A DNA stretch of 46,379 nucleotides from Macrostomum lignano (taxonomy: Eukaryota), in the NCBI GenBank assembly GCA_002269645.1, contig NIVC01000060.1:1-46379 (forward strand). The letters run 5' to 3'. The translations under genes were made by a program, and so were the position numbers. Of the stretch, positions 1 through 41,063 are shown piece by piece (within the stretch, counting starts at the first letter, position 1; each line of letters begins with the position of its first letter). The notes beneath the pieces are model-generated. The model worked only from the letters and a program-made list of their open reading frames with translations, was not told the origin of the DNA and did not search any database.

Positions 1-3000
1 GAAATTCGAGAGGCCCTGACGCAAGTTGGTCTGGCTGACAGAAAGCGGTCTTTGGCGTCTCAACGCATTCAGAGAAAAACCGGATGTCAAAAACGCAACC
101 GGCTTAAAATTTGTTCGTGGTGGTGGAACTTCAGCTACTGGCAGTCCATGGCTTAGATGCAGTAAGTATGTGACAGTCAGGTGCACTGGGTAGCGATGGA
201 CCATGTGCTGTTGCTGACTCTATAGATCACGCTGAGCAGCTCTGTGTCTGTATTCGGACTGCAGTTTCGCGGCAGTTCTGTACACGCTGCGCCGTTCTCT
301 GGCGAAGCCATGACGAAACTGCCTTCGGCCCTACAGATGCTCGAGTGCAGACATAGGGAAAAAGTTCGCAAGTGGCCAAGTCAAGATTTGTCTGCGCACT
401 CAGCGTGACGCCAGCGGCCTCGCCAGGATGCACAGAATCTCCAGATGTCAGGTTGGCAGGTAAACTCAAATTTAGCATTAAGCATGAGGAGGAAATGCCG
501 CTGGTGTTCAAGCTACAGTTGCTGCGGCAGAGAAATAGGACTGGTTCCAGCTGTGGAAGTGAGATCATAATTTTTAATAATTTAAATAATCTATAACATC
601 GCACAAAAGTATGAAATTTATCTCTTACTTGAAAGTTTGCATCCGGCAGGGTCACCGCAGCCACGTGAAAGGGACTGGATGGGCTGAGGATGAGCACTGA
701 CTCAAAAATCAGAAACTCCTGAGTTGATCGAGTAATCACCGGAGGGCTTATCAGATGAAGTGATGCTGAGACATTCAACTCAGGCTGGCACAGCTTGTTG
801 AAAGAGACGCAGGCGTCGTTGTTGTCCAGCTGGTAGTCGACAAACTCGGAGAAGCTGCCCGGTGCTGCGGACACGCAGATGTTTGAGATCTGGTGGCAGA
901 TGCTTCCGGCAGGCAGCTTTAGTGTTGCTGTGCACACAACATCGAATGTTTCTCCAAGATAGCGTGCAGCACTGAGGTTTCCGCTGACAGCGATCGCTGA
1001 GCTGGCGGTGAAGTTCAAGTCGCTGAATAGTGACATAAAGCGGGCGGTGAGGTCGAAGTTCATCTTCGGAGACGGAGCGGCCGTCAAGCTTGTGGTGGCG
1101 TTGAGAACACGAATTCTGAAGCTGAACGTCAGGTTGGTTGTGATGTCCCGAACTACTGTCTGGGTAGAGACCAAACTCAGTGAGCTGACTTCGGTGTCCA
1201 TCACTGGAAAAGAAAATGAGGTTATGAATCACGCATTCTATCACTTGTAACGAAGCAAAAGCATGCAGCAATTTGTCCTGAGCCACTCACAAAGTTTGCA
1301 CAAAGCTTTCCGCATCACGTAGCCAGACTTGCACAAGCACGTCGTATTCAACGGTTCTCCGGGTGACAGACACACCGTGTACTTTGCCAGAGTGCAGCTT
1401 GCATCCGCGAAGCAAGCATCGTTAATATTTTTAGCTGGAAAAAATCGAGATTAGTTGTAGCTCCTTCGATAATTGAACAAGTTAGGGTAGCAAAAATCAG
1501 ACTTACGTAAGTGATAATAGGATTTTTGAATGATTCTCATTTGAACCTGAGCCCCTGACGCGCTGCTCAACGACCATCTGATGGAGTCGATCGGTTTGAG
1601 CGGCGCTCCCTGTGAGCTTCGTGCGGGACAGTCGCTGCTGAACCACCAGCCGCTGCCACCAGCAGTTGCGCACATCTTTGCGGTGCCGAAGTCGAACGTA
1701 GAGAAGGTCGACATGTTCTGAGCTTCGAACAGCTGCCCGTCACCGAAGTCGGAGGCGCAGTCTTCCAACCGGAGCTGAAAGTCCAGAAACGACGGTGCCA
1801 CTTTGACATTCCGGCACTCCACGTATCGAAAGCTTCCATCAGAGATCCACGCGTCGATCCGCATGGAGAACTTGGCCATGAGTGTCAGATCGCTGAGTGA
1901 CTGCAGCCCGATCCAAACGAGGTTGTCCATCTCGAAACCAGCCTGATACTGCGCTATAGAGAAGTTCATCGAGCTGTTCAGGTTGAAGTTTTGATAAATG
2001 ATCATCCAGTCGTGGTAGCAGTTGATTTTCTTGCTGTCAATGGCGGTCTCATTGCGACCCACGCATGTCGGTACTGGAAAAAGCATGTCGAAAGTCATTT
2101 AGCACTTTTTTACGCCAAAGAGCAGTTTCGAAAACTATAAATAAAGAATATATGCCGAAGCAGAGGACGACTCACCCTGCAGCACGCTTCCAAATATTTC
2201 ATATTTAAAACTCAAATCGCTCCGGTAAATTGCAGGCATAATCTTGGCCTGCTGAGTAACCACTATTGTGCGGGACTGAAGTATCACCACCTGGTTCAGC
2301 AGATGCTTTTCGTTTACGGAGAGTCGTGACGTCTGAAACCGATAGAGGTCATTCATTACTTCGTCCGGTAATTCTCAAAGAGAGATGCAGTTTTTAGCTT
2401 ACCTGGTTGTCGCTGAGCACAAATGTTGCAGGAAACCAAGTCATGGTCTCACCGTCGAAGTACAACAACAGGATGGAGTTGTATGCGAGGGGCTCTCCGT
2501 CTACGCGTTTCAGGTTGTTTCCGGCACCAGAGAAGCCTAATCCGGTGATTCTGACTTGCCTCGACATTGTCACCTGACGGTAGGTCATGATGGCTTTCTA
2601 TCTATCTCTATTAACAGTCTATCTTACAGACAAAAAACGGTCAATTACGAGTACCATTATGTAATATCCGTTGAAACACTCCGAAGGTGACAAAGTTGGA
2701 GACGACAAGAGCGAATCAGCTGCAGTTCCGTTTGTAGCGTTGGCTGTGAAAGTAACACTGACGTTCGATGTTTCAGACATCAAGTTCTGCCAGGAATCAG
2801 CTGAAATCATTTCAATTTTACCTAACTGTAAGTAAATGCTCATATCTACTGCACATGTCAAGACTCAGAATACGAAAGCGAAGTGACTCACGACGACAGA
2901 CTTGCTCCACGAAGTGAGTGCCGATTCGCAATACTGCTTGGAAACTGATTGACAGAGTGTCCACATTCAGCCCTGTGAAGCTCTCGTGGGAAATCTCCAG

Positions 3001-6000
3001 GCTCCTGCACCCTCCATCCTGGCACTTCACCAGCGCACTCTGAATGCTGTCCACTTGTAAGGACTGGCGGGTGTCGGAGACAATTGAGTAATTGTAGAAC
3101 ACATTGTAGAACGGGTTGGAGCAGCTCAGGTGTTGCAGAACATCTGCAATTAATCAAGTCATGGATCTGACCCAGTTCCAATGACAGTCTCTGCATCAAC
3201 CTAGATCAAGTCGGTGAGCTCACCGGCCTCAGTCTGGCACAGGATGTGACCTCTGAAGGAGCCGCAGTCAACTGCAGTCCAGGCCTCTTCAGTCAGCCTG
3301 GTGGCAGCGCAGGCTCCCGCCACCGAGGGCTCCCCGATGCTCCAGTGCGCCCAGGCTCCCAGGCTGCTGTTGGTCGCCTCAGACAGCCACTGACCGCTGC
3401 TGGAGTTGAGCACTGCGCCAACGTGAAACCTGAGGTCGCTGGGCTGCGAGCTGAAGCCGCTGCGGGTGCACAGAGTTGGGTGAGTTTGTCAGCGAGAGGC
3501 TGGCATAGTGCTGGGTTAAAGCAATGCGAGCGATTCTGGCATACAGCGAGTGATCGATGAAGGCCAGCTTCAGAGCGGTGTAGTCAGCGTATGAAGTAGG
3601 CAGGAAGAGGCCGCCAGGCCGGTCCCAGTTGAGGCTGCCGCAGTAAGCCTTCGCCACTTCGCGCGCGACTCCCGGAGTTCCGTCCGCAGAGTGGTGGCGG
3701 CAGCGGCCTTCGAAGTAGTAGAAGTTCACAGGGCAATCTGTAGAATGGCGCATGTTTGATTGAAATCTTGTGAATAAATGACAGGTAAAAAAGATTTAAA
3801 ACTGTGGCTCACCTCCCGATGGACAGCCGTATAAAGTGTTGATGGCCAAATTATGTATCTCAGATGCGTTTCCCAGTATCTTTCCGCTCTTGGCAATAAA
3901 AGTTTGATTCAGCCAAATACGGTTTCTACCGTTGATTACGCGGAAAGTCTAAAAACATCGTTAATAGTGAAGATTGTTTAAATAATCAAGTATAGCGAGT
4001 ATCGAGTATCTATCGGATTAATGGAATGGCTACATACCAAAGTGCTGTCGCTTCCATTGACAGACAATTGAAGAGCAGCCTCCGAAACTGTGAGATGAGC
4101 GCTTACAGTTAGGTTAGTGAGGTAATGTCCTTTCTGCAGCTCGAATTCAAGAACAAGCAAATCGGTTGCAGAAGCGAATTTGGTATTGAAAGCAGACGAA
4201 GATAACGTTGGACATTCTGAAAGCAAGAGGACACTCACGGGCTTCAATCAGCCCGTTTACAGAGATTCAATCAATCATGCACTAGTTCTAAAACTGCACT
4301 CACCGACAGGAAACCCGACGACTCCAACTTTGACCCGAGCGTCTCCATGGAAGCTGAGTGGTGACAGGACCAGGAACTTTGCCACTACTGGATCCGACAG
4401 ATCCTCTACAAAACTCACATTGGAAATGATTGAACCCAGCAATTCTTTGTCTGGAATGCCTGCCCTGGGCACCTCCTGCAGCTGGGAGTCGTCATGAGTT
4501 CCATAGTGCAGTCTGAACCGATTCAAATATGATCCATTGAACCCGGAAGAGACAATGGAAAACACTCGATGAGGAACCGGGAATGTGATGCGGACGGAGG
4601 CATTCACAGGTAGCTCAAAGGCTGAGCCACTACTCAGCAGCAGGGCGGCAGGCCCGCGTTCCCAGCTCGCACTGGAGGGCCGGCGCACCGTGACCTGGTG
4701 CGGCGCCACCGGCACGAGAGGCGCCTCAGGCAGCGACTCGGGAGAGCAGCCGAACAGCTCAAACTTTCCGGCAAACCGGCCAACCACTCGCAGTGGGTAG
4801 ATGCGGAAATGGCGGCCAATGACAGGGTTGGGTAGTTGCTCGATCGAGGTTATGCAGCTGTTCGGGTAGTCCGCAGGTCCGTGCAGAACCTGCATGATAG
4901 GTGATGAATGAGCCTGTTGTCATAGCTCAGTAATAACTGAAGTATTCAATGAATGCTAGTAGTCCACTTTCGCAACACTTACGGACGGCGCCAAGCCCCA
5001 GAATGTTCCGCTACGAGAGTACATCAGTACATAAGTGACTGCTGCCTCCCTTGCGAGTCCAGTTAGACAGTAGATACCGGACATTGCAACAGCTCGAATT
5101 CTAGCTTGCGTCTGGAGGGTGATTTGAAGCCACTCATCCAGACCGGCGGATGCTGCTCTAAAGAAGCCGAAGGTCCCGACCGGAGCGTCTGAAATATTGT
5201 ACAAATAAAGAAAATGGAGTATGCAGACAATCAGGCGAAAAACTAAAACCATGATTAATGGTGTGAGTGACGGTAGGGTAGTCATAATCATAATCAATTC
5301 TAATGGGTTAGTCGAACAGGGATTGCTAGCCTGCCAATGGATTCTTTTAAAGCTTTACATTTAAAATGAAGTTAGTAAACTTCAGGCTAGAGGTTACTAA
5401 ATCTTTTAGTAAAGATTTTTGTTAAAACATTAGGCAGAAAGCTTTGTAAGAAATCGGTTACTGCAAGTATAGCGATAAACGAATATGAAGCAATTGTCTC
5501 ACAAAATGTGAAAAAAATCAAACTTGAACGAATCTTGTATTATAAAACAAAATATGAAAATTAAGGGCACATAAAACTTTAAAGGCGATTAAAAAGCTTT
5601 TGAAGAGAATAGACTAGAGAATCAGCCATTGGTGTTCTGTGTTGAATTCTCACTTTATGATGCACATTTAGAAGTTTAAATGCATGACAAATACGAACTA
5701 TAGCAACCAATCACGGGAATGTCCCATGAAATCTTGTTGGTAAGGTTACCTTAGAAAATTAGAAGCCAAATAGAAGTTTGCTTACTTGGAGAGTAAAACC
5801 CGAACGATACGTGCTCAGGCGGGTAGCCTGGAAGGCTTGACTTAGAAGTGATGCTGGACACCATCACAGTTGCGTTGTCGTTTGGGTCCGGACTTAAAAG
5901 CGGGCTGTCACAGTCTGCAGCTGAAATTTGTTTAAAACAAGCAATAGATATATGAGAATGCTCAATAATCAGTTTAAAAATTTTTGCTTATGGATCAGTA

Positions 6001-9000
6001 AACACCGGCACTGTTACAGTCACGAACATTTTGCCAAGAACTTTCGTCGCTCACCATAGCACCGCCACCGAAACGAACTGTTCAGGGCAGCCGTTGAACT
6101 CTGAGTTGCAGCTTCAGCTTCCGCTGTGGCCGCATCACTGACGGTAGCGGGAGGATGACTCAGCAACACAGCTGAGCAGTTCCGAGTTTCGTTTCGGTGG
6201 CAGTCGATCAAAGGCTTCAGAATTGGGTTCGATGTAGCGTACGTCCTAATGGGAGTGGCTGCTGACGAACTCAGAGCGGTCACGAAATATTTCGACTCGC
6301 AGTAATTTCCTGCGTATTTAATTGTTAAAAATATGTGCGAGAGTTCAAACAACTCAATGTCAGATGCAGCAGAGAAAATCTCACCAGGTGCGGCTGGCAC
6401 CTCACAGATGAACGGAAAGACGGCAGTCTCGCTGTCGCAGGGCACGGTGAACCACTGCATTCGCTCGCCGACCTCCGACACCACGCAGCCGCTGGTTGCA
6501 TTGCTGGGCAGCTTCCAATTGTTCAGATGGGCTGACAGAAGCCTGCCGTCGGAGGTTTCAAAGCTGCCGCTGGCGTTGCTGAACTCGCCATCGATATGGA
6601 TGAAGTTGTAGGCCGGGACCGAGCTGAAACATAAGTTATCCAAGATATGATTCGATTGCATCTATCTGTAGAATGTTGCATGTGAATGGTTTCAGTTTAG
6701 CTCAAACTCTCACAGGTTCAATTTTCCAAAAAGGGCTTTGAAAATCTGTAGCTCAGACTCCGTAGTCATCTTTGCTAGCCGTCCTCTTTCGTTCCAAGCA
6801 AGAGACTTGCAGATCTTGTGAGCAGTTTGCCTCGTTGCGATTGTATGAGGCTGGCTGGAGTCCGAGAATGGAGCCCAGTAGCAGAGTTGGCCATGACGGA
6901 AGGTGTTGATGGGACAGTCTGCGGGCAGGGGTCCCAGTAATGCAGTTACGATTGTGTACTACATTTTTGTACTTTTGTATCGCTGAATCCCTGGCCTGCG
7001 AGGCACGTTACGGTAGGGTGTACAGGGTACACTGGGTACAGTACAAGGACATGGGTCTTTGCTCGCTCCAACGTGACTGAAGCCCTCTCAGGACGCCAGG
7101 ACACCAACCACCTGATGCTAGTTTCATAACACACAGGCTGGCGTAAAATCAAAGCGATTAGGGTGTGACTACATGTGCGTAGCCGAATCTGAGTCGGCGT
7201 CAGAGTACACGGACCCTTAGCTGCCACCTTGGCAACCGAAAGAAAAAAGACGGATGAGCCCACTCAGTGTACTTGACGGCAGGAACTAATACAAGCAGCC
7301 AGGCACAAACCTCCATAGGCTTCCCTTTTGATTCTGTTCTCGCTTCATATTGTTATTATTCAGCTTGTCCTGGAGTGGCGTGGGTGCCTGCAGACTAGTG
7401 GAGCGGGCGAGCAAAAGCTAGACAAAGTCAGATAGAAAAATCACACACACGCCCAGCAGAGCGCGGCGTGACTACGAGCTACCTAAAAGTCAGCCCGCGC
7501 GGGGAAACCATTCCACCACACACCCCACCAGCCGGCCGTTGGGCTTTACCCCAAACCAGCCAATCACAACGCGGGGTGAGAGAGGAAACTCGTCAAGCCA
7601 GCAACTTGGCGCAGCTAACCAGCCGCAGCGGCTCTCAGTGCCAGAGAGAGCTAAAGTCGAAAACAAAATGAGAAGCATGGGTGGCGGAGGGGCAAAGACA
7701 AAGAGCTCTTGCACTGTGAAAAAGTTCAAAAGGCAATACTACGTTTATCACTACTACGAGCATTGAAAGCAGTTTTAAAACAGTAGTCTGGGAAAGGGGC
7801 TTTCTAGGACAAAAATTATCGCAGCCTCTATAATGCACAAACGATTAACTTTATTATTCCCAAAGAGAATAATCACATCCCGAAGGATGTGAAGCTAACC
7901 GGAATCGAGCTGTATTTGGAAGTCATTGAGCCAAAGACTGCACTAAAAGCGGATTATCTCAGGGCAATAGAGAGAAGGAAATTGATGTTGCATACACGGC
8001 CTACATGTGTCGAGATAAGCGAAACGAAACTAGAACAAACATCTGCATTAAAGAGGGATCATGCAGCAATCCAAGGTATATCATTATTAATATGAGAAAC
8101 CCAAATAGCATTATACGCTACATGCATGGAGACGTGAGGTCCATTCAGCATGAAATCAGTGATAATCTTTACCCTGCACTGCCACAAAATGGAGATTTCA
8201 GTCAGAACAAGATTAGCAAATTTTACAGCGAGTTGGTCGACTTGGCTGTGAAAGAGAACAATGGAATTGCTATCACTGCTCTTCAATATGGAACTCTATA
8301 TCCGATGTTTGGCGCTGATGTGTCTGCCAGACAAATGCCTACTGATAACAGCCCTGTGAATATCGTGACTAACATTGAGAGGACTACCGCAACACCCGTG
8401 GACCTGTACATTATCTATGCATTTGAGAGAAAGGTGAAGCTTAACACGATCAAAAATTCATCCAGTAAAGTTTGAAGATTTTTGTGGGTGAAAAAAAATG
8501 GAAGCGATTGCTGAAAGACTAAATAATATTATTTCTCGCTCTAAGGAGAGCATTTCTATTACAATAACTGGGCGAATTAATGACTCAAACGGGATATTTG
8601 TTCAAAAATTAGAGCAGGCGATTCGCCTGGATCCAGGTGCTAAATACCATGTCTATCTTAACGACTTCACTGGTTGGTCAAACGTTCCCAATGTGACGGC
8701 AGCAAATAATAAGTTTTATTACAAATGGAAAGGTGCAGCAGCAGAACCTGTGGTATTCCCTGTGAGCACGCAAAGTGTGGATACCTACAAATACTTTCTA
8801 GAAAACGTCTTTACTAAAAGAGGCCATTTTGAGACACCTGATCTGATTAAGCCAGAACTGTTCCCTATCAAACTAGCCTATGATCTCACTGTAATGAGAG
8901 TGGTCATGCAAGTTCACAAAGATGCGGAGGTTGAGTTTAAAGATGACACTTGGTATAGGGAATTGGGATTCAAGAAGAAAGTTTATAAGGCAGAATCCGC

Positions 9001-12000
9001 GGCGCGGACTGTCACTCAAGCGCCGAAATCATCGGGGGTCGTTAGCATGGCCCGGGAAAGTGTAAGCGGTTTGTTTGCACCCAATATTGCAGACATTGTA
9101 AAGGGTTTGAATATTCTAATCAGAAGTAATCTCAGTCTTGATTGGGTATTTAAGGGAAAGCGAACGAATATTTTGTACAACATCTCTAACTCTGTAGCTG
9201 GAGGACAGATGCTGGTAGAGAAACCAAATCCAGTGAAAAGAGTTGTATTGAGTAATAAGGAGATTCACGAGATTGTGCTACAGTTTGAGACTGAAGATGG
9301 GGTGGGTGTTGATTTCAACGGTGAAGAGTTTGTATTGACGTTGATCATTGAGAGAATGTGAGAAAAAATTACAATTGCTTAATGATTTCTCCAAAGTTAT
9401 AGTATATCTGTCGTAATCTTTTACGTAGGTTGCTCCATACTTAAGAAACCAGTGTCTTTGGAGAGCTAGATTAATATTAGGGACATTGATATCAACACCA
9501 AGCCAATATTTTCTCATGTACTCACTGCATTCTAGTTTGCATCGGTACTTACTCTTGTAATAAGGCTCGTGCCTTTTGTAAAAAGAACCTGGAGAGACGA
9601 TTGGAAGCATTTTTATTGAGAATTTAATTCTATCGGAGGATGAGCACCCTGGGTTTGGGGATTGGCGCTAATTTGATTGTCTTGGCACACTTTTTGCAAG
9701 GCTGGGAATATGGAGACTGATATTTTGTGCTAGACTTATGAGGCTGCGTAAATTTTTGATAATAAATGTAGAGACAGATTTTTGGGAGGGGCAGTTACCC
9801 TTTTTCCTGATCTCTTTGGGAATAATAAAGTTAATTGTTTGTGCATTATGGAGGCTGCGATAATTTTTTTCCTAGAAAGCCCCTTTCCCATACTACTTAA
9901 AACACATAAGAGGAGGCAGTTGAATATTCAAAATGAATATATTACCAGGAATTGGGCAGCCACGAATTTCGAATCTCGTAGTGACTTGATCTGCATCAGA
10001 AAAGTTAATGAAAAGCATTCTAGTCCGTAACACTGCCGGCAGATATTGCTCAAAACCGAGACTCAAGTTGAACAGCTGGAATAATTCAAATGGGTGAAAT
10101 TATTTTTCAAAATATGCGTTTTTGGAAACTAATAATACATTTTATTTAATAAAAATTTCGTGGGTCTGTTGCTACGACTGAGTCAATTCGTAAGGTTAGA
10201 TCAGTCTTGTATCGCTGAAGTGGCTCCGATCAATATCCTAGGGCAACCACTAACCAAACTATAGTCACCCATTTTACACTGCTAAATTGCACAGAAGTAT
10301 AAAACCTTATATGAGCTATTAATAGACATCTCACATGCGCTGAACCGTGAAGTGTGACTGGACGGACGCTTTCATCTACAGGGCTTGCATAGGATACGAC
10401 GAATGTGGCTTTCTCTGACAGGCCGTTTAGTCTCCACCCTGTGAGCAAGTGCGCAGTTGCCAGCTGAACCTGAACTGTAGTTGGCGATGTTTGCGTGATT
10501 GTCAACACAGCGCTGCTGACCCAGTCGCAATCTGAAGTGAAGTTCAGCCATTAGCGTTTGAATTTCAGTTCTGATTGATTTTCCTAGGGCAACCGCCTCT
10601 CACCTTCAGGATAGCCCAGCAGTTCTAGTCTCAGCAGTCTCTTCCTCACAAATCTGATTGGCAGAATTCTGACTACTCTGGCAAGAAACGGCTTAGTAAA
10701 AGACATCCGAGTAGCCATTTCGTTGCCTGTGAGACCAGTTCTTATGATCTGTAATTGACGAAACAGTTTAAAAAGTAACATTGTCCTGCTTAGTAAAACA
10801 GTTGAATAGATAATAGGCATTTTAGAGCATAACGTAAATCTCACATGGCTAAGTCTTCCAGCAGAGTACTCAGTATAATTAAGCATTTCTCTCGAATTGT
10901 TTCCATACCAAATCCGTGCGGTCGTGACATAGCCGTCAAAGCCTCCAGTTGCGAAGTCCCAGACTCCGCTGCCCTGCCACACAATTCCGGTGATGCGGTG
11001 GATCACATCCAGCTGAATCTCCAGGAAGCTGCCGTCAGTGACTGCTGCAAAGTTGGAAATGCCATATTTTAGCCTCAACTATAAACTGCAGCACTGCTCA
11101 CAGCTGGGATCAATCAGCTCAATCAGCTCAATCAGCTCAATCAGCTGCCAAGCGACTCACAGTCAGAAAAGACGGCAGCGGGCGGCAGGCCGACCTCCTG
11201 GCCGCGATTCAGCGCTGCCATGAGCGGGGTCGGGTGCCGAAATGCGTCGTGTGGACTGGCGGCTGTCGCATCGCCGACTGACAGCTGATTGGCCATAATG
11301 CGACCGTCCTCGAGTCCGACATTTGAGTTGATGAAGTAGTAGGCAGCTGGAAATAAAAGAACTAGTTGACGTTAGAGTGACGCTGTTTACGAACTCCTGT
11401 AAACTCAGTTAAGTTGTTGTCGGAGTAAAGATTTGATGTAATCAGCTCACCAATGCTGGGATAGCCGTAGACTTCGAACTCGCAGAGTGAGAGAGTTCCC
11501 AGCGATGAAGGCTTTCGCAAGCCAGCGACTGAAGCAACCTGTTGGTTATTATAGATCACCTCTAAGACTTGTACTTCTCGTTGAGAGTGAAATAGCTGCC
11601 ATTTATTTTCTGTTTAAAATGACGGAATCGCTACCTTATTGACGTTAATCTTCCACAAATGGGACTTCATGAAGCCGCCAGTCCAAGTTTCCAATATCGT
11701 GACTGCTGTCGCGTCCCACGGAGCGGCCGTGCTGTTGCTGATGTAAACACTGGCTGACTGCATGTCCTCGGATAAGGCCTGGACTTTGTCTGTCGGATCA
11801 GGGGGGGGGGGTAAATATGGAGTCCAATAAGTGCGATTGATTTGTTTAAGGCGACACAGAAAACCTTCTGCAGCTACTGAGGACTCACCGAGTGTCTCGA
11901 CCATGTCGACTATAAAGATGAAGACGATTCGCTGCGCCACTCCGAGATCCACGAACCAGTACAGATAAGGATCGGCGGTGCCGGAGTGCTGGAAGCAACG

Positions 12001-15000
12001 GCCTGATAGAGCGTGGCTCTCGAAGTTCCCGTCGACAGGCAGTCCTGTTGCTGCGTCGGAATTCGATCCGGTGGGCCGGTAGCGGGACAGCAGAATCGGG
12101 TTGGCGATGGCGTCTGGATATGGCGCATTTGGAACGGCAGGATTGAGGCTTGCAAACGCATTACTCGGACCTCAAAAAACTAAACAATGCATGTCAATGT
12201 CCCAGATATGCAACTGTTTTTTACTTACTGGCGGAGTCGCTGCAGCCGAGCAGCTGCCACTTGAACTCGAGTTTCCGCGTCCAGCTCAGCGGATACAACC
12301 GGAAGCCCAACGCGACGGGCTCGGGCAGCAAGCGGTGCCGAGACTCGTGCTGAGCCACGAAGACTCCGGTCAGAATCTGTGGAAAGAATTGAGGCTGTCT
12401 GTGTGAGTAATTGCTCAATGAAGTCAATGGGGAAGCCCATGCAACTCACCCAGCCGTCTCGGTGCAGGCTCCAGTACTTGCCCTCCTCGCTCACCGCGGC
12501 CCTGAATGACGTCACGTAGTTAGAGTTGTCTCCGGCCTGGTTGACGAGGGCGCCGCCGCCGATGGCCACTGCGAACAGCCGGCAGCGTCGTGGAAGAATC
12601 GCCTGCAGAGTTGGCGCGTTCCTCGACCGTTAGTCAGCTGGTGCGAAATTGGACTTCAAATTACTAGGCGGAGCAAGCTGCACCTCCAAAAGGTCTTACC
12701 TGGACAAAGACTGCGGTAGTGGCTGGATTGTCGCTCAGGTACGCAAGCAGGCTGGGCGAGAACGCACCCATGCTGCTGTTGTCCAGCTCATGGAACACCA
12801 GGTGCGGCGCCATCTTGCCAGCAGTGTAGGAGTCTGACTCGACAACGAACCGCTTCTTCCGCCTTCTGTAGGGCTGAATGAGTCCGGAGTAGCCGATCTT
12901 GTTCACCTGGATGCCGTAGACGGAGTCCCAGCAGCTGCCCAGCGACTGGTTATTAGAGAACACCCTGATAATGGTGAGGTTGCTGCCAGCGCTTTTCGAC
13001 TGCTGCCAGGTGACGCTGATGTTGGCGAAATCGTCCGTGTCGAACACCACAGGGTCGGAGAAATCCGAATCCAGCGATGTGAGCTCAAAGTCTGCATATC
13101 TGTAGTCCTTGCGCTCAACGGTGCAGCCGCTCAGCCTGATGTGGCTGCTGTTTCCCGTCAGCATGACGATGTAACGTTTCTAGACAAGGCAGAAGTTTTC
13201 AGACCATCAATAATTTCCTGACCTATTTGAGTTTTATTTTAAGAGATTTTCTCACGTTTCTCATGGCTTTGTCGTATCCGTACTGATCCGTGAGCCAAAT
13301 TTTTAACGTTGTTGTTTTCAAGCGGGCTTGGAAATGTACTTCCTGCTGAGGGATCGCGGCTGCCACAACGCCTCTCGGCATCCATTCTGGCCTCACTTGC
13401 ACGTTCTCATCGAGAGTGTAGTCTGAGAAAGGAGAGTTGCACTCGTAACGAATTTCTGAGTAATCTGTACATAGAATTTGGAGAGTACATGTAAACCTTC
13501 TACCTTATTATGCAGCCTATCCTAAGTTATTGTTTCCTAGAGCAAATTAAAGAGATGATACTTGTACTTACACTCTTTGCCATATACATGCAGAGCAGTG
13601 ATGCTCAGCGGGGATCCGTGCTCGATCCTCCGCACAATGGCCAGGTATCTGGACGGTTCAGAAGCGACGCAGGCAACGACGAGCTTGGAGCTCAGGATCG
13701 GCACCTCGACAGATCCGCACTGGGGCCACGCGTCGAAGGCCGAGCCGCCAAGTGCCGGCTGCCAGACGATGCTGGTGAGCAGCCGAACTCCAAACTGGCT
13801 GTGAGTGGCTTTCAGGGTTGGGATTCGCTGCATCAGTCAGTTTCGATATGAGTACAACAAAGACCCTTTAATCCCCCATCCAGTTCAAAAACTTTCAGCA
13901 TAGCTAATGGCTTGTTGAGTCTTTACTATGCACCAAAGAAGCATCAATGCGGTTAACGTAAACGATTTTGCATTAGTGTTTCTCAATAACGTCAAACTAA
14001 ATATGAACAAACTACCTGTCTCCATGTCGACTCCGGAGATGAGGTGCAGGCTCTTGAAGTCAACAAGAAGACTGTTGACTTGCGTTCCGACCACAGGTGC
14101 AACGCTATTAAGGACGAGCGTCAGAAATCCTTGAGCAGTTCTACCGCTGATTTTGACCTTCTGACCGTTATAGTAGATGGTCTTGAAGTAGGCGATGTTG
14201 TGTGAGTACGGTTGCGATCTCCAAGGCTCGTAGTCGTGAACTTCAATGAGTGCAAAAATATTTACGAGTATTCTTACTTTTTCTGTTTCAGAAACAGTGT
14301 TTGGGTTTGTGAAAAGATGATCAATTTCCAGGGAATTTAGTCGCGGAATTTCTGTGGAAGGCTACCAGTTTGCAAAATTGGCCGGGATGTGGGACAACCT
14401 CGCTTCGAAATTAAGGGGGTGTTGAGCCAGAAATAACGGTAGCGAATAAAATTCAATACCACAAGTATAATTTCTGTATTTTAGTTAGGCAATTGGTATT
14501 TGCGTATTTTACCCAGTATAATTCTTTTATTTGAACCGACTTCGACAGCCAAAAATAAGCTGAGTAGCGAAACAAGAATATCTCAAATACTCGTAGCATA
14601 AAAAGATTAACATAAAAGTGAACACAAATAGTGTGAGACCAGAGGGCAAGAGGGGGTAAGAGCACAGAGGATGAGAGTACAGAGGTGAAATCATATTGTT
14701 TCACGGAATTCCGCAACGCACCCGCGGATCGGAGACTCTTTCCACAAACCCTACTGTATTCAACTAGGAGGTCTTTTGGAACTCACGGCAGTTGTGTCGA
14801 ATGCAGTCTTCTGTGGATAGTGTGACGGATTCTCGGCAATAGGGTGATCTGCCTTCGGTGGCTGCATAAGTATAAATAATTAAAAAATGCATTGAGGAAT
14901 TACAAACAATGGCTACTTTCGTTGAGTGAAACAATATTTCTGCAGGGCAAAAGCACTTACGACTAATGCAGTAATTGCGGAAGTGTCTTTTACTGCTTGT

Positions 15001-18000
15001 GGTTGCTGGCCTGCAAACCCGGCCCCTTGCAGTCACGTTGATCTTGTAGACAAAGTTCTCATAATCACCAGTTGATAGAAGACAGTTAGCTGAAAGGTGC
15101 TACTAAATTCAAGTTTGAGAAAGCATAGCAAGTGCAAGAAGTACTAGATCGATAGTGAACAAGTCTTACCGCGCATTCGAACTCCGCTTCCAATGATGGA
15201 GCCAGCAGCGTCAAAGTAGGACGCAGAGAACGGGAAGCCCCGGACCGAAGCTCCGCTGCCTTCGCCAAGGAGCGGACGGTAGCAGTCTGGATCGGGAATG
15301 ATGCACATGACCCAATGAAAACGATGTTAACAATCATAAGAACTGATTTTTGCTTTGGATTGTTAGCCGATGTTTACCTCTTTCGGCTGGCACCACAGTC
15401 ACAATTCTCCTATTAAAGGCTGGCCGAGCAACTCCCACCAGATCGGGCGGCACGCTGCAGGCAAACACAGTGGAGTTCGAATACTGAGTGCTGCTGGTGC
15501 TGAAGCCGCTCTGACTGCCCTCCAGCAAATGCAGCCGATCGTACAGCAGCCTGCGGTACCGGTTGCTGCCGAAGTCCGGCTGCTGAACACAAGCTCTACT
15601 GTAGCGGCCACCAAAGCTGGCCCTCTGATCCGCATAGGCCACATGACTCACTAACATCGTTACTTTTTCGCCTGAATTAGAGTTGAGTTCGTTTTTTAGA
15701 ATGGAGTTTGCACATTGACATTTTGCAAAATGCTTAATTGTTTAACGCACCGTTTCGTTGGGGTGCCTGCGGCAGCTGGCAGGCGAACATCTCCTTGGTC
15801 CCAGCTTCGTGTGCAACGATGGACGCTTGCATTGTGCTGTACACGCCGTAGATCTCAGACGGCTGGCCGAGCTTCCAGTGCGAGTTTGGCACCGCTGTGC
15901 CGTCGAACCAGAACCAGCCGGAGTCGTTCCGCTGCATCCCGATATGGAATTCAAAATCGTTCCTGAATGAGGAGAGTGTTAAAATACTTCACGGTAAATT
16001 GTATTGTAGCTACGCGTTTTTTTGTAATTTTATCTAAGTTCTTTTATCTGTTCTACGAGCGCTCAATCTTAACCGAATCACAAGTCCTGCATGATCTTTA
16101 CACTAACTTGATTTTAGTTATCACCTCATTAACTGAATGCTCTTCCTAACGGAGAGGGAAATGTTGAACGCTTCAGTTTTTTTGCTCCATGGTTGTTACT
16201 CGAATGACTAACTTACCGCAGCACTAATACCACAGTCATATACCTAGTGCAGTCCTAATACCACATCAGACTCACCAAACACTCAGGAAGCTCATCACGG
16301 CCGCGTCCTTCGGCATCAGTAAGCTTCCTCGGCCACCAGCCCAGAAGTAGGAGCTGCACAATCTGTGAGCACTGCTCTGCAAAGCCTTCACGGCGCCGAA
16401 GTGCAGGCAGATGTCTCCGTGTGGGGTGAAACCTGGCGGACAGGGACTGGCCTGGACGCCCCAGAGGGACACTTCCTCCGGCTGCAGAGACCCGTTGGTG
16501 ACGTGGATTGTAAGATGGATCGGCGTCAGCAGCACCGGGAACTCGAATATCCATCGGGCTGAGCTTTTCTGGAACTGAGAATCGTGATTTTAACGCGACT
16601 GTTATTTGTTCGAGCAAAAGCACCGACGCTTTTGATAATCAAATGGATTTTTTAGCTGTTTCAGTACGATTTTGAATATGCGCTGTTCTGTTGTGCAAAA
16701 TAACTTCCACAGAATATGAATCGAGTCTTATACTTTGTTTTTCGCTGTTTGCGTTGTTTTACTCCTTTCTCTTTATTATCTGTCCGGCCATGGATTCTTT
16801 CAGAGACATATCTCGTTGCAAATCGGTTGCCCTCCGTTCTGTCTTTTGTATGTTATAGGAGAGGAGACCAAGGAGCATCACGACACCCTCACTGCCCTTA
16901 CTTCAATAAGGTTCGGCACAAATATCTCGGCTACCCCCAGCGGATGGACTAGCTGACCACCCCAGACAACATCCGTGATTTTCGCCCCTTCGTCTGAGAT
17001 ACAGGCCTGATGAAGATTGCCGATTCCTCCCCTGCAAACATGCCGTTTACTGGCGGGGGCTGGGTGCGCCCCCAAGATTAGGCCTTGGCTTCTTCTACCT
17101 CAGGGGTTGCAATAGGAGCCTCGCGGCCTAACCCGCCAGTAGTAAGTAAATTTGCTCCTCTCCAAGGCGGCGTGTTTAGTATACGGGCGTATTTTTCCTC
17201 CAGTGCCCTGAAGTGGACTGGATCGTTGTGTTTATTACACTCCAACCCTCTTAGCTCGTACTACTATAATTGATGCACCGAACTGGCACACTTTGTTTTC
17301 CATATTATCAATACGAGTACACAATATGATCAGTAAAAATAAATTAGCAATCATCAACTCACCAGCCACTTTGTGCCACGCACAGTCAGTACCGAGTCTG
17401 GCTCGCCTGCAATGTCACTATAAGAGACGTAGAAGCTCAGATAGGAAGCCGCAGTCCTGTTCACCACGATTCTGTTCACGTGGAAGAAGGAGCGGAAGCT
17501 GATGCGCATTGAGTTTGTCTCGGTCATAGCTTTTCCTATGTCAGCGATTTCGGTTGCATCTACAATAGAAATTATTTCGAGGGCGTCTTTGTTGTCGTAA
17601 GATACCTTGACACAAAGACCTTGGGCTTTCCATTTTAACTCACTTGGATCTTGAGGATAGCCTACTAAGTCTAGCTTGATTTGCCTATAGTGGCAGCAGT
17701 TATAAAGGTGTATTTTGAGCAACTTCGCCAGAATAGAGCGCTGAAAATTGACTCGCATAACGTTAACGTCGTCGTATGTTGCATCGAGTGTTATCTGAAA
17801 AAATTACCCGTGCTTCTACTTAGCGTTCGGACGTTTAACATCTGTAGCGACTCTTCGGTTTACTTGACTATTTTTATAAAAAAGCCAGCTACGTGCATAT
17901 AATTTCAATTTAATCAAACCATGCAGTATTTGCACTAACGCTTCTATTGTTCACCGATTTTAGTATAGTTCTAATCTAATTAGTAATATAAGCTATTAAT

Positions 18001-21000
18001 ATAGCTGCCAAGTCTTGGACGGGAAATCCTAATGTGAATTCCCAGTCCCAATCCATATACTAAAAATGAAATTTTTCCTAATCCTCTATCAGAACTTATT
18101 TTAAAAATGACAATCAGGCAGTCTAAAAGCGTAAAATGTTCTTTTAAGTTTTCTTGAAAGCAGAAAGGAAAAAAATCGTTATAGGTTTAAAATTTAAGAT
18201 TTGTCTACGGTAAATAACGCATAACACATAAGAGTAAACTGTTTTTTGCAACAGTCCCTCGTTCCACTAAGCCAAGAGACAATAGTATTATGTCTTTTTG
18301 TCTGCTAGCGTTGTTGGGAAGGTTATCTTTACAATTAATCAATCAATTTTCTTTCTAAATTTGACTTTTTTCAATTGAACAAGTATTTTTTAATTAAGCC
18401 GTTTTGTTTTACTTTATTCAATTAATTTTCCTTGTGTGCTTCTCGGGTCACATTCTACCTCATTTTACCCATGAAGCATGCTTACGGTGCCCTTATCCAG
18501 TACGTTAACGAAATACTCCAGACGATTTCTGTTGCTATCCGGGCTGTACTGCAGTCGCATGCTGCGGCATCTGCCACGCAGATAATGCCAGCCGTAATGA
18601 CCGTACCACTGATAGCTCCCTCTCGCCAGTGCACCGGTCAGTACGAATGCTTGCGGCAAGTAAATATAAAAATTGCTATTTAAAAAGCTCTCATGAAAGC
18701 TCTCGTCACCGGGAAATTCAATCGGCACTGAGTAAGCATCCGAGCAGTAGTCATAAAATGAATTTCCATTGTGAGTAATTCCAGTTGATGGATATCGTGT
18801 GCCAAGACCGGTGGCTACGTCATAGGCTTTGGGAAGATAATCAGCCTCTGTGGATTCTGGAAATACAATCGATGCAGTTGTTAATAAATTCATACCACAT
18901 ACCTTGACCCAATTATTTACGATTTTTAGCTCGTAGCCAAACTTACCAAGAAGCGATCCGTAGACTTCCAACTCGGCAATCTTTAGAGGGCACGCCGCTA
19001 CACAAGCTGCTATCTTCGCAACACCGACTAGCCTTGCCAACTGAATGCAAAATATATAGCATGATATGTTAGCCTCAAATTACCTGCAACTTCCTGTAAA
19101 ATGAGGTACAAAACAACAATTCAAAGCCCATACTTGTCCAATGTTGCTTCTCCAAGGATGCTTCATTACTTCGTGAAGGTTTTCCGCTACAATAATTCGA
19201 TCTGTAAGCGAATGCCTTGATTGGTTGCTGATAAAGATGGCCACGTTTACGTTTGGCTCTCGGGAAACATCGTCTAAAATTACCATCGAAATATTGAAAC
19301 GAAATTAGCTTAAATTACTCATTTTTGCATGTGTTGCGCATCACCTTCATGGTACAATGAAGTTTGGCAACCCAATTGCTGCCCGCCTTCAGTCGGTGCT
19401 CACATATTGAGTCCTCTTTCAGCTCTGTTACAAGCTATTGTTTATCTTTCTGCTAGTATTAGCCCTGGCAGAGTAGTCTCTAAGCCAAGAATTGTGACCC
19501 TAATAGTTAAAGTATGATTTACTTTTGATTATAACTTTTATTTATTTCAGTTTAACAAAAGTGTGAGTTGTTCATGACATTAACAGTAACTTAAGTACTA
19601 ACTTGCGACACTGGCGTGGTACGGCCAAACAAGAACAAATTCAACATAGCACAGGGCCTCAAAGTCGATTGCAATCCATGGTAGGCTACCAGAGTCGCTC
19701 CAAATTTTACGATCGTATGCACCATTTCTCTCGCCATCATTGATTCGTCCCGCTGCTGCTGTGTTGCTGGCAATCACTTGGCGATATCGGTGTATTTGTA
19801 GGGCCGGCGGATTGTAGACTGTTCGGTCTGTAATCGATTTTAGCGAGAAATAGCAAATACATTACCTTTTAAAAGCTCGTTTCACAAGCTCAAACAAGAA
19901 ATTGCAACTGTATCACTTGAGGAAATCAAAGTCAAGAGCCAGATTATCCGATATTTTTGATACTAATAATAATAAATTACACCTGACTTATTGGCCAGAT
20001 GTACAACCGACAGCTCAGCCGCAGCTATTGCGCGGCGCATAGAAGGTTGCGTACGGCTGTTCAGTCCAAGGACTGGGGGTCGCCACACATACCCTCCACA
20101 CATACCCCAGCTAATGCTGGCACCCATTTTACAGCTGGGTGAACTGAAGCAATGCAGAGTTTAGCGTTTCGTTCAAGGACACAAATCGATTCGAGTGGTT
20201 AGAGAATCGAACCCCCGACCTTTCAGCCGGGAGTCCGACGCTCTATAACACTAGGCTACAACCCCCTTTTATTTTTGAGCAGAGTAGCTCAGTTTAAAAC
20301 GATTCTGATTTTCATCCCACTAAACCCTGGTTCCATTCCGTGCGTGGCCACTTTCTGGATCTAGTCCATGAAAACTGACGCGGGGTTGTCGACGGCCAAC
20401 CCCCCCCCCCCCCCAAACACAGAGAGTGCACATGTCTGATAATTAGAAAGTCAGGACCGCTGTACACCCTGTGCGAGCTGCGAGCATGAGTGCGTGCCTG
20501 CGTACAGTATTAGCGCTTGTATTGCTCAGGAGTCAGTGCTGGTTGTAGGACGATGTCTCCGAAGGCGCTAATCCAGGGTGTCCAAAGTTCTCTGTGGCTA
20601 TTTATGAGCGCATATATGTTGTTATGTTTTATTCCGCTGATAAATTTTTAGAGTATCATGCATTCATAGAATGCTACTGTAAGTAGAGTAAATGCAAACA
20701 TGCGCAGAAATACTTAAACTATGAATCATGTTACTCTATATATAATGAGAAGATGAATCATGTTACTATCTATATTTTGAAAAATTTGTGTATAAATATG
20801 AGTACAAGCGAAAGATCCGAGCTGAAATCTCAGACTCGGAGCGGCCTCAAGAGATCTTGAGCTTTGTTAGAGCAGCCAAACGAGGCTACATCTCCCAGGG
20901 AGAAGTAAACCAATTGGTAAGCCTTTGTCGAACTCTTTGATATCTGATTATTGAGAGTTGTCTTATTGCCGGCCGTTATCGTTTAGTTGATTTTCATTGA

Positions 21001-24000
21001 GTTATTGAACTTGAGGCCTCCCTATTTTTAAGGGATTGGATAGGATCTGAGGAACGATTTTAATACGATGGATTGATTTTGGTACCCTAGAGTAACAGAT
21101 AAGGGCACACGACTCTGATTCTGTCTGCTAGTTCTAGAAGAAGACGCCTTTTTGGAGGACCTCGTTATTGTTACAGAGTTGACTTTATTACTAGGGCAAA
21201 TCTCTGATTTTTATCACTGATTCTTCCGAAGAATACATCCCGTACAACAATCCGACGTATCTGACCGACGTCGTACGACGTCTATGTAACATTACGTGTT
21301 TCCTGTTGGTCGGACGTCGGGCTGACGTCGAGGTCGTAGTCGGAAAATTAAATTCGCCTTAATTCACGTTATTCGCCTTAAATAATTAAATTAAGCATAA
21401 CAGTATTGCTTGCCAGTTCATCCCGCGAAAATAAATGTTAAAGCAGCGCGAAATAAATTTTTGGACTGCGACTTCGACGTCGGCCCGACGTCCGACCAAT
21501 AGGAAACACGTAATGTTACATAGACGTCGTACGACGTCGGTTCAGAGGTCGGTGCGACGTCGGATTGTTGTACGGGATTGACGTCGACGGATTGAATTGT
21601 TACGTTCATTAAAGTGCTCATACTCGGCCGACTTCAGAATTCAAGAAACTCCGAAGGAAGACTACATTGAGAAGACGAGCTCTACGGACCTGCCCGACAA
21701 AGAAGAGGAGCCCGCGATAGTAAGTAATCACTAAATTCTGTTCCCAGACTTGCGATCTGGAAGTGGGGGTTTTCGAGTGACTGATCACCACTCCTAAACT
21801 CCTAAATTTCTCTCACCTGAAAGACAGCCATACAGCATCCAGCGGGATTCCCATCGGTTTCTGTATCCGCCTCGATGCAGCCTGAAGCTCCTAGCAACCA
21901 GCTCTGGTATGAAGCTGACGAACGAAGCAAACCATGGCTTTGCTCCGGCTTTTTGAATCTGCATTGCATATCAAATGTGTGACATCACATTCTTACTGTG
22001 GAAAATCTTTTATAGCCTTTGGCACTCCTTCAGGTCATGCATTTTAATTTTATATTCGTAACTAGCGTATTAGCTACAAGGGCGAAGTAAAGTAACGTAT
22101 TTTACTTAATTAGTCCTTGATTAGCTCATGCCTAGAAGTGATCAATAAAAAAGTCTTTTAAATAAATTTTTATTCTGTACAGAACAATAAAGTTTTAAAT
22201 TATTGTTCTGTACAGAACAGACCTTAAGTACAGACTTAAATAATTTTTAAGTCTGTACAGAAAAACGTACACACCAGCTCTTCCCGACCCTCTCAGTTCA
22301 GACCCAGTTAACAAGTAATTTAATAATTACGATATAAAATTTGACCCAATGATTTTATATTGTGGTTTTTTACTGTGAAACTCTTGCCACCTTTTCTATC
22401 AAAAAATCTCATCGATTCTTATCGCCTTCGACCTGTGAGTAATTTCAATTGCTTTTGATGCCTTCCTAGGTCCAAAAACTCATCCAATGCTCTACTTTCG
22501 ATACAGGGAGATGTACGAGTACATTTTTTAGCACGAATCGACCCATTAAACTCACCACCGGACTGTACGGTGAGTAGGAGATGCCGTCTGTAGAGTAATA
22601 TACATACAAATCGTAGTTGATTTGAAAGTACGATGGATCAGTCCCAGCTCGATCTGTTCCTGGTTGAACAGCCATGACAAACACATTGACCATTTTGGAG
22701 AAGGTTGCCTAAAAAGTAAATCGATGCAGAAGAGTCTACAAAATGACATTCACCTCAAAGTTTTAGGAAGAAAAAACTGTTAAAATTCACCTGAATGTAC
22801 TCCCTGAAGTCACAATAAGAGTTAATATTTCCAGGCGCCCACATTCCGAGTTGTCGATCGTCTGTAAAAACACAAAGTGTAGCACTCTAGGCAGTTGAAA
22901 ACTGGCTGATACCATCAATTAGAAAGTCAGGATTAAGGTAATACTTTTTGCAACTTTAGAGTTTTGCTTTAAATTTTTTTTTACAAAAACGACACTCACT
23001 CGGTATGTCGAACAGAACGTGCGCCCTGGTGCCGTCCGAGCCGCTTCCCAGAGTCGTGTAGCCGACAGTTTTCACGTCAACCGCGTGACTAGCGTTAGTT
23101 ACAAACAGATCGACTAAGAGTGCATCGCTGATGCTGATGTTGAGTCTCGTCTGAGTCCAGGACAGCCTAACTAGCAGGTAGTCATCGGTGATAGCAGAGA
23201 TTGTGTTGTTGATGATCACCTGCATAACGGCTAGATTTGTCTGGGTGACCGAGTCACCTAAGCGGATTGAGCAGTCAGTAGCGACAACGGAGGAGCCGTT
23301 GCCTTCAAGTGAGATTTCCCAGCGCAACTGCAAAATTGAAAAAAAGGCAAAAGGACGACTTTTATTTTAAAGTTAAAATTTAGCAGTATCGCTATCTTTA
23401 AAAGCAACAAAACTACTTATTAAATAATTCTTCGTACAATCTAGCAAGCATACATTATTGAGTATGTCAGCGTGTTCGTAGTGCTCTGTCAGCCACAGCT
23501 TGATCCCCGTCCTCCTCAGCCGAGCCTGCAGCGTCAAAACTTGATCTCTGGTGGCGTTTCTCATCACAATGGCAGGGACTCGGCGAATCAGATATGGAAA
23601 CGTGCGAACCTCTTCAAATTTTTCTATAAGGTTATACGATTTTCAGGTATTTAATGGTTATTAAGTAAACTATTATGAGGATTACAGGTAATGGTAAAAT
23701 ATTATAGCTTACAAACTCGATGTTACCTGAATGCAACTTTGTTCAACTGATATCTTGACACCATGCATTTTTCGGCCCCCCCCCCAACCTGGCCTTCAGT
23801 GATTCTACACGGTATTTGTTATTTGAAATCACCTTGACCCTAGCTATAAATTTTAGAGCTAGAGAATTTAGTTTGTGGAATTTTACATAGGCAGTACGCA
23901 TGGTGAATGAATAAACGATGAAATGTAGACAAAAATGAACAATTCGTTCTATTCGAATGTGTTTTGCATACGATACTGAACCAAAATTTATATTAGAGTA

Positions 24001-27000
24001 AAATTATTGTGATTTTGCTCACCTTCTTCAGCTTGAATTTTCAAGTTTCGGATACCCATTTTTCCCGTTGAAACGCCCTGCAAAAAGACAATATATCGAC
24101 CGCAGAGACGGCTAAGGCATCGCATCTGCAGTGACGAGGGCGCACTCATAGGTAGGTTGAATCTGTAGCACTCAGGCCAGGATTCAAACGCCAGGTCTTT
24201 CAGACTGGAGTTCCAATTGTTTCCAACTTTTACAGAGAAATTGTTGGTCGCTGAAGATTGAAGTTTTTATTAAAGCTGATAAATTTGATCTATATACTAA
24301 TGACAAAAGCATATTTTTTTAGATAAGGGAGACTTCTACATAACGGAAAGGAAATCAATTTCAGTAAAACATATAGCCTATATTTAGCTACACATTGACT
24401 AAAATATCTGTTAATGGATCGATCGACTTCACAACCGATGTAACCATGTACAATGTACCTAGTAGCTGGCGATAAACTTCTTTCCGATTTCATTTATATT
24501 AATACATTTTATATTAAACTAGGAAACTCGTATAAATTCTCTTGATGTGAACTACATGTACGTACACAATAAACAAAACAAAGGTTTTCTGAGTATATAT
24601 TTTTGAAGAGTGACGCCAATGGCGTTGCCAGGGGGTGGGAAGAAGTGACCTGCGACCCCCAATAGGCTTGACTCCCTTGATCACAACATTAGCAGCTTCC
24701 CAACAACTATTTTGGCGCCACCGTGGCTGGCTAACATATTATTCCCTAAAAAACATAACGATGGAAAACTCACTTAGTGAAAGGTCCGCGTGAATGTATC
24801 CAATGCAGTGGCTGGATTTTAAATCAACGAGAAGTCGCCAATAGTGCTTTGGCGTTGCAGAAGATATACCGTTAGTGTGCAAATAAACGTACTCCATATT
24901 TTCTCCAGGATTGGATATAATGACATCGTTGAAGTAAAATGTTTTTTGATAAGTAACGGAAAACATTTGCGTTGCGGCACTTGATCCCGATGGCGGGTAG
25001 TAAAAATGAGCTAAAAAGCGAAATAATTTCTGTAATAAATGACAATTTTATTGCTAAAAAACTCTTAGAATGACGTCATCTTACAGCACAAAAAGTCGTC
25101 CCTGGACTTATGGCAGGTTTGAGTGTCACCTGAATTAGTAACTTGGCACGTTGTTAAACCTCCAGTTGAAACTGAAAGTAGAATAATGAGATTAGGACAC
25201 AATATTTGGTGACTCACTTTACTGCTAAAATTAAACCAAATCAAGCCAAAGCAAGTCAGCTCTCCGGCCAGTCTCACCAGTGATGCAGGATCTATTGAAT
25301 CTTGAGTACCGTCCGTTCCAAGGCACGCATGCTCGTCCATAGTCGGTCATCGTAATCCCATAGTCGTAGAAATTTGAATCTCCTCCAACTACCGTGCACT
25401 TTAAGTGATCTGTACAGTTCAGTTATTCATATTGGCTTAGAAATAAGTCGGAGCTAAAGTCAATGAATTTTTCGCATAAAGATATAGATTAGCTACCTTC
25501 ATATTTCAGAGCCGCACCAATCAAAGCACCATCAGGACTTCGTCGGTAGTTGCTGCTGGAGGCCGACACTTCCACATCAAGCTTGCCGGCGATGCCGTTC
25601 AGCAGAGGCTGTAGACAGTCTAAATGGCGACGATGGCAAAGTCGAAATTCCAATTAACTTCAACTTTGATTTTATTAATAATTTTGTCATTGAACGCAAA
25701 AAATAAAAGTATAATATACACTATTAATGATGTCCATGAACTTGTTTATTTAGTCCATCTATGTTTCAATGCAAGATACATGTTTCTGTATCATACGTTG
25801 AGAAAATGAAAAATCTATTTACGAGTAGTTCGCGCCACTATTGCAATAGCTCAATAACCAAATTAATGAAATTGTTGCACATAAGCTCTCACCTTGCTTC
25901 ACTTGCAGTGGGTGGTATGTGACGTAATTCGACCTCCCGGAATGACAGTCACTCGGTAAACTTGTAATAAAGGTGCAGATGGAAGCACACGCAGCTACCT
26001 TACTACTTTGGCTATCTAAATTCAGCAGATGAATGGCCTGAAACAGCCCGCCTACATCGCTGATATCATCATCCAACCCAATGCTGCAGCTGTCCCCAGA
26101 GCTCAGTTGGACGGTGTGCCACTCGCTTTTCGATGCTGAAATGTGCAAAGAAAAACGGTAGAAAATATTAACAACATTATTAATAAATGCCATCAGTTTG
26201 AGCACTTACGTGTGTACTTGTCGATCTGGCAGATGAATTTCAGCTGCAGGCCGCAGGTGACGTCCACCATGGTTCCGGTGAAAGTGTCCAGCGCGGCACA
26301 GTTGGGCGCGGGCCGGCCCATGTAGAAGGCGCCAACCTCAGGCTGGGTGCCGTCACCCCAGACCCACTGGTTGTTGCTGGCGTTACGCTTGAGACCCGTG
26401 TGAAAATAACTGAAGTAACTTCTCTCACTCCCTGAGTACCTGTCATAATTTTTACGATTTCTACTTTTACATGTAGTTTCAAAATAAAGCGACTTGGTTC
26501 AAAAGAAAAAAAAGGAAGAACGGAATCACTTACTTTAAAGCAAATAACTTTCCGGTGTACCCTTGCTATTTTTTCTTTCTCTTAATGGCGACACAAACAC
26601 AAGATTTTGGCACTTCTATCGAAAAATAACTTAGTCCCTTTGTCCAAGAGGATTGGGAAACCACAGATATCATCCATCATATCCATTAATACTCAAATCC
26701 ATATTGATTGCTACTTTAACTCGAAATTAGATTATAGACTTTTCCTTGGACTTACTGAAAAGGGGTTGTAGTTTCGTGGTTAGAGCGTCGGACTCACGAC
26801 TTGAAGGTCGGGGGTTCGATTCCCGAATCCCACTGGAACAATTTGTGTCCTTGAGCAAGACACTCAACTCTGCATTGCTTCAGTCCACCCAGCTGTAAAA
26901 TGGGTGCCAGCATTAGCTGGGGTAATTGAGGGTTTGTGTGGCGACCCCCCCCCCCCAGTCTTGGACTGAACAGCCGTATGCAGTCTTCAGATCTGCCGCG

Positions 27001-36451: not shown

Positions 36452-36452
36452 C

Positions 36453-36472
36453 TGGTGGCAGCGGTGGGATTC
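36453..36472 (+). other. Primer-binding site complementary to the tRNA-Leu 3' end
   Basis: TGGTGGCAGCGGTGGGATTC is the reverse complement of ...GAATCCCACCGCTGCCA-CCA, a eukaryotic tRNA-Leu 3' end. Confidence 0.85.
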
Positions 36473-40932: not shown

Positions 40933-41063
40933 GTCTATGTTTGTCTAATGAAATCTGTTATTTTCTATGGTCTAAGGCTTGCGCAACTGTGGAAAGGATT
41001 AATAGCGCGCCCAAATTCTCAAATTGGTTGTTCCATGGACCCCCTTTCGGGCCATAGACAATG

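Follow-up and report, generated by a model that had tools for sequence, protein, structure and literature searches.

A 2.1-kb capsid-only element in the Macrostomum lignano genome is a single, decaying Polinton remnant

A 2,116-bp element lies in the 46,379-nt stretch of Macrostomum lignano DNA that was analysed (the window; contig NIVC01000060.1), bounded by a perfect 6-bp target-site duplication (TSD), TAAAAC, at 7776-7781 and 9898-9903. Its termini are inverted copies of each other over 87 nt, at 95% identity (7782-7868, plus strand, with 9811-9897), and the four mismatches, at positions 7, 29, 48 and 62, agree with the count in the original prediction. Both terminal inverted repeats (TIRs) have AGT-repeat termini; the right end alone has the AGTAGT-A of the other subfamily ends, and the left end carries a private change at position 7. 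The left terminus is followed on the plus strand by about 16 nt of junction sequence (7869-7884), the 3' part of a major capsid protein (MCP) gene (7885-8475) and a 287-aa ORF (8498-9361), and then by a right TIR homologue of about 533 bp on the minus strand (9365-9897). The ORF list contained only two long ORFs inside the element, 7930-8475 and 8498-9361, and the pPolB and rve integrase of its 15-16 kb relatives were missing from it, in line with the predicted lack of integrase, pPolB, ATPase and protease. Rfam gave no matches over 6600-10700.

The description of the TIRs as intact did not hold. In full-length relatives the TIR is about 620 bp long (12 mismatches in one copy) and starts directly after the penton stop. 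Since the last 533 bp of the element are homologous to this family TIR, the right TIR is whole and the left 87 bp are likely a stub of the TIR. Compared with the left TIR of a full-length copy, 9365-9897 was 87% identical over the inner 300 bp and 72% over the outer 100 bp. The outer ends are of a rare type (B), which is only 72% like the main family type (A) over 100 bp. There were 20 matches to the B-end motif, comprising the element's own 10 ends, nine unpaired ends of decayed elements and one weak match. None of these matches came from a full-length element with a B end on both sides, and the element has the only paired B ends.

The 287-aa ORF gave no match to Pfam or PDB sequences. An AlphaFold (AF2) model was built from 15 sequences (pLDDT 73), and Foldseek matched it to the mavirus penton (E 5e-11), the Sputnik penton (E 1e-7) and adenovirus penton bases. 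The fold search returned 40 matches with E up to 1e-3, with TM-scores of only about 0.4. By its modelled fold, the ORF is a single jelly-roll penton, as had been proposed. The upstream ORF is the tail of an MCP, with 161 of 167 residues (96%) identical to the end of the 428-aa MCP of a sister copy, which confirms the 3' MCP fragment of the original prediction. Comparison with the parent MCP showed that it starts at about codon 232 of 428, has no start codon and contains a frameshift near 7969 in the window copy. The sister MCP matched PF21738, a double jelly-roll family, with an E-value of 3e-5 that does not reach the curated Pfam cut-off; all nine homologues carried PF21738, and the MCP structure model was weak (pLDDT 53). 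By sequence, the fragment is thus assigned to a double jelly-roll major capsid protein. The viral identity of the element stands; its 6-bp TSD, AGT-repeat TIRs, penton and MCP place it among the Polintons/Mavericks as a non-autonomous member.

A genome search with the whole element (best 40 of 663 candidates scored) recovered four end-to-end copies, and a junction search (best 40 of 229 scored) added a fifth. A 33-nt junction pattern allowing up to three mismatches had exactly five matches in the whole assembly, and the TSD and the host flanks, homologous over kilobases, were the same in all five copies. Six copies of the host locus were found with the left flank at 95-100% identity (11 of 11 candidates scored), five of which were filled; the sixth, on contig C3091, lacked the element and contained a single TAAAAC. 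The joint from 7774 to 9897, which skips the element, was present in one of four DNA runs. Because C3091 is empty with one TAAAAC, the duplication is not a chance repeat but marks a true insertion, and the empty allele, the rve gene of the parent and the penton fold together bear out the predicted Polinton identity and integrase-type insertion.

The five filled copies, among which were near-identical contig pairs, represent three lineages that are 2.8-3.7% apart. Over the first 500 columns of the right flank the empty copy was the outgroup (2.7-3.3% vs 1.4-2.0%); in the left flank it was not, and the copies were mosaic there. The single junction, TSD and host site indicate a single insertion that then passed to the duplicated or allelic copies of the host region. 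Exon-like ORFs are present on both sides of the insertion, which suggests that the site may lie in an intron of a host gene on the minus strand. We also considered the element as a passenger within another transposon and rejected this, the flanks being a six-copy host gene region.

A junction common to five copies could mean that the element founded a trans-mobilised family, a viral MITE or satellite, with the five copies as separate transpositions. The original prediction had proposed a genome-wide search for several loci sharing the junction but differing in TSD; instead, all five were found at one host site, with identical TSDs and flanks homologous over kilobases, as three lineages of one locus. 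This origin is refuted for the assembly and overall very improbable. An assembly artefact, in which a long element was collapsed, might be expected in a repeat-rich family with near-identical contig pairs, but the same junction occurs in five contigs differing by up to 3.7%, and flank-to-TIR contigs were found in three of the four runs, from separate studies. We regard an artefact as extremely unlikely.

The capsid region matched a large family at 91-95%. The end motif of this family occurred 449 times in the assembly, corresponding to at least 449 termini. TIR pairing used 293 listed termini, leaving out 156 or more, and among these 293 there were 64 inward pairs under 40 kb, with a median of 16.1 kb: 40 at 13-18 kb, three at 4-13 kb, four under 4 kb and 17 over 18 kb. 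The Polinton family of this host is large and has recently spread. Copies read in pieces contained an rve integrase (E 1e-9), DNA_pol_B_2 (pPolB) with an endonuclease VII match, a Pox_A32 ATPase, PLA2, a double jelly-roll MCP, a penton and a weak CE-clan protease match. The PLA2 gene, a candidate PLA2X-type gene by sequence matches, hit PF08398 at E 1e-13, and the pX match was in a separate ORF (E 4e-4). The proposed search for a full-length parent succeeded to the extent that this family of about 16 kb was found; no full-length parent with the B ends of the element was found. The MCP and penton genes lie at the right end of the parent, abutting the right TIR, and a small right-end remnant is consequently capsid-only. 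In the element, the left end is retained up to base 87 and the MCP gene resumes at about codon 232; a 15.4-kb copy has about 13.2 kb that the element lacks.

Several other short derivatives were found. At another site, one B-type insertion is represented on contigs C730, C305 and C279, which share one flank and break at different points; post-insertion deletion in the B-end subfamily is thereby shown. C544 is a 3.57-kb capsid-only derivative, unrelated to the element, with the TSD ACATAC and both termini kept; it is single-site, with one full-span match (best 40 of 822 scored) and one flank match. C124 and C289 (716 and 640 bp; TSD ACCAGC) keep both termini and occupy one site. The C124 junction showed a 3-bp microhomology and the C544 junction a tandem templated insertion (p=0.003). 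Templated insertions at junctions are linked to polymerase theta. The element and all four short A-type pairs (three sites) retain the end with the capsid genes, and their breakpoints lie within the opposite TIR. This sample of short derivatives covers four sites; one was selected because it has capsid genes, and another (C105) lacks a matching TSD. Stub lengths were about 75, 87, 240 and 455 bp, and B right ends broke at 22, 89 and about 207 bp; this spread ruled out a breakpoint hot spot at 87-89 bp.

On the basis of what was observed (one host site, an empty allele, the gene order of the parent, the segment retained and the decay), we consider deletion in place by end-joining repair to be the best explanation of the element, and a probable one. 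A Polinton, an adintovirus-like provirus, inserted once at the host site and made the 6-bp duplication. The empty allele and the rve integrase known from Polintons account for integration with a 6-bp TSD, and the incoming element would have been a near full-length, rare B-end copy that used either its own integrase or that of a sister. About 13 kb would then have been lost in one internal deletion inside the chromosome, likely after insertion, through end-joining repair of a break that presumably preceded the divergence of the three filled locus lineages. The product would be the 87-bp left stub joined to the last 2 kb, with the MCP tail, the penton and the right TIR. The remnant is now drifting, likely with gene-conversion patches from other Polinton copies.

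Deletion in place is supported by the B-type site with three different deletions in three locus copies, the finding that each of the other short derivatives has its own junction at one site, the differing stub lengths of the short derivatives, and the microhomology or templated tandem insertion at derivative junctions, which resembles end joining. The two left-right TIR differences common to all five copies argue that the element was likely in place before the copies split, leaving time for the deletion before that split. A longer version of the insertion at the TAAAAC site was found in none of the six locus copies, and the order of integration and deletion is for that reason one that we infer. 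Counting against deletion in place are the capsid-end skew of the short derivatives, for which defective genomes born during replication could equally account, the lack of a significant template for the 16-nt junction of the element, the capacity of end joining to act on free linear DNA as well, the position of the empty allele as outgroup in the right flank only, and the lack of a full-length element with two B ends among the B-end matches. The junction sequence was identical in all five copies, and shuffling gave no significant template in the TIR or the MCP (p 0.79 and 0.07). A variant MCP loop or a templated copy as its source found no support, as it was absent from all copies compared and the shuffles gave p 0.07-0.79.

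The deletion might instead have come first, in a free replicating Polinton genome, and the resulting 2.1-kb defective molecule might have been integrated once, in trans, by the integrase of a helper. The perfect TSD, the two kept termini and the lack of a longer allele at the site are consistent with this order, as are C544 and C124/C289, which also keep termini and TSD with the same polarity. In insects, there is a report of polintons that lack polB and have kept their mobility (10.1101/2025.02.07.637071). However, termini and TSD also survive deletion in place, each of the short derivatives checked has a junction of its own and occurs at one site, in-place deletion occurred at another B-type site, and the templated insertion of C544 is typical of host repair. 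We judge this order of events unlikely. As for a candidate helper, family A is abundant, and its ends are only 72% like those of the element over 100 bp. A broader version, in which the Polintons here spawn capsid-end defective genomes during replication that are integrated in trans, with at least three independent mini-elements with perfect TSDs (2.1, 3.6 and 0.7 kb) as chromosomal snapshots, is speculative and doubtful; it would mean that a 75-87-bp end suffices for integration. Of the two origins offered by the original prediction, the in-situ deletion remnant thus fits best, and the trans-mobilised MITE or defective interfering particle does not fit a junction found five times at one site with one TSD.

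The predicted unbroken penton ORF was confirmed in the window copy; it is broken in the other four of the five copies. Private changes of the element's lineages in the penton were 21 nonsynonymous to 3 synonymous, against a neutral expectation of 28% silent (p=0.11), whereas variants common to the family were 28 to 36 (p=2e-4 for the comparison). By these counts, the penton appears to gather amino-acid changes without visible constraint. At 16 of 79 variable sites the alleles were common to family copies, with about 5% expected, and in the penton tree the window copy grouped with two other B-type remnants (99/90) and not with its sisters. The window-copy penton differs from its sisters by two indels, both in frame, and the tract of the in-frame 9-bp indel is also present in another B-type remnant. 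Patchy gene conversion among Polinton copies is therefore likely.

The intact ORF of the window copy and its in-frame indels could also be read as a sign that the host keeps the penton for a function, either domestication or antiviral interference. The broken ORF in the four other copies, the 21 to 3 ratio of private changes and the locus copy without the element speak against it, and the 9-bp indel tract in the other B-type remnant points to conversion, not selection; we hold a host function to be highly unlikely. The claim that the element is fairly young found no support, as TIR divergence was 4/87 in the element and 12/620 in a full-length copy (p=0.12) and the copies differ by 2.8-3.7%.

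The features of the element can be compared with known systems. Among vertebrate Maverick loci, 96% are degraded, and TIRs are 46-1,447 bp long with a mean of 402 (PMC8097293); these fossils share with the element the AGT-repeat end motif, the 6-bp TSD and jelly-roll capsid genes. Unlike them, the element, at only 2.1 kb, has retained its two termini along with the TSD, and the assembly that contains it also includes an empty allele. The parent resembles alpha-class adintoviruses, whose virion modules are marked by PLA2X (PMC8502044), in having pPolB with an endonuclease VII match, rve, an A32 ATPase, hexon, penton, PLA2, a pX-like ORF and a weak match to a CE-clan protease; of these, only the hexon tail and the penton are left in the element. 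The insect polintons without polB (10.1101/2025.02.07.637071) are 12 kb or longer, and their mobility is inferred to have outlasted the loss; the element is likewise TIR-bounded and without a polymerase but is only 2.1 kb, with no second site. Penton genes adjoin the MCP gene (PMC4028283), and general Polinton context includes a 584-bp TIR in a lizard Polinton (PMC3014272, PMC6431247, PMC11414722, PMC5753468). In the part of the literature searched, no report of a capsid-only mini-Polinton was found.

MITEs and Ds-like derivatives arise by internal deletion with both ends kept, and amplification to new sites defines their families; non-autonomous Polinton families were reportedly described by Kapitonov and Jurka in 2006 (Repbase). 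The element shows the same end-keeping deletion as these but has not spread to new sites. It carries no gene for mobility, and nothing indicates that it has moved.

The element is thus a real, single, decaying Polinton remnant, an ordinary fossil and not a new mobile mini-virus. It is usable as a dated presence/absence marker and illustrates the erosion of Polintons and the sequence exchange among them. If the deletion had occurred before integration, the element would map the minimal end for Polinton integration and would demonstrate that defective genomes exist in a group whose life cycle is known largely by inference. Of more interest than the remnant is the host's recently spread Polinton family, with its at least 449 termini.

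The mini-Polinton, the 2.1-kb capsid-only remnant at window 7776..9903, contains a tract of variants, including a 9-bp indel (window ~9010-9080), that matches the rare B-type remnants on contigs C305 and C730 and differs from the sister copies at the same host site. Alleles of family copies were found at 16 of the 79 sites variable among the three mini lineages, where ~4 were expected (p = 1e-6). Gene conversion likely generated the shared tract and the family-copy alleles, and hypermutable sites could have contributed to the shared alleles.

The B-type remnants on C730, C305 and C279 (loci L096, L098 and L110) represent a single insertion in three locus copies, which bear three different deletions adjoining the terminus. 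Nested among B- and A-type ends on C3908 and C2011 (L088-L090) were ORFs from a second, distinct Polinton-like element, with a hit to the integrase domain (rve, E = 3e-8), together with an MCP-like fragment that shares only 75% identity with family A, the large full-length family. Genome-wide, at least 449 termini of the Polinton family were detected. Its elements are typically ~16 kb, with ~620-bp TIRs containing internal repeats and a gene content that includes PLA2 and pX-like genes, and the capsid regions of its copies are 93-96% identical to one reference copy.

A second capsid-only derivative, independent of the mini, was found at a single site (C544:473028-476600, L108; 3.57 kb, TSD ACATAC), and its junction contains a 16-mer in three imperfect tandem copies. 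Other TIR-bounded deletion derivatives included 716- and 640-bp copies at one site (C124 and C289, L106 and L107; TSD ACCAGC), a 3.8-kb element without a matching TSD (C105, L105), and an 8.7-kb element lacking the polymerase (C33, L109; TSD 5/6).

A large host gene on the minus strand (window 200-19100) is represented by exon-like ORFs, two of which enclose the mini; its domain matches are to Fibrinogen_C (E = 3e-9) and, weakly, F5/8 type C. The six copies of the surrounding host region showed a mosaic of relatedness, and 0.5-1 kb to the right of the mini the window's copy was ~11% divergent from the others.

Elsewhere in the window, three or four tandem paralogous genes spaced ~4.1-4.5 kb apart (33594-46238) carry a candidate Cys-loop ion-channel-like motif. 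We also observed an inverted pair of SINE-like repeats (19961-20245 and 26781-27070), a possible 1.9-kb TIR element (39441-41334), a 94-bp hairpin repeat (21264-21541), and tandem arrays of 10-bp and 15-bp units (28850-29700 and 32255-33000, respectively).
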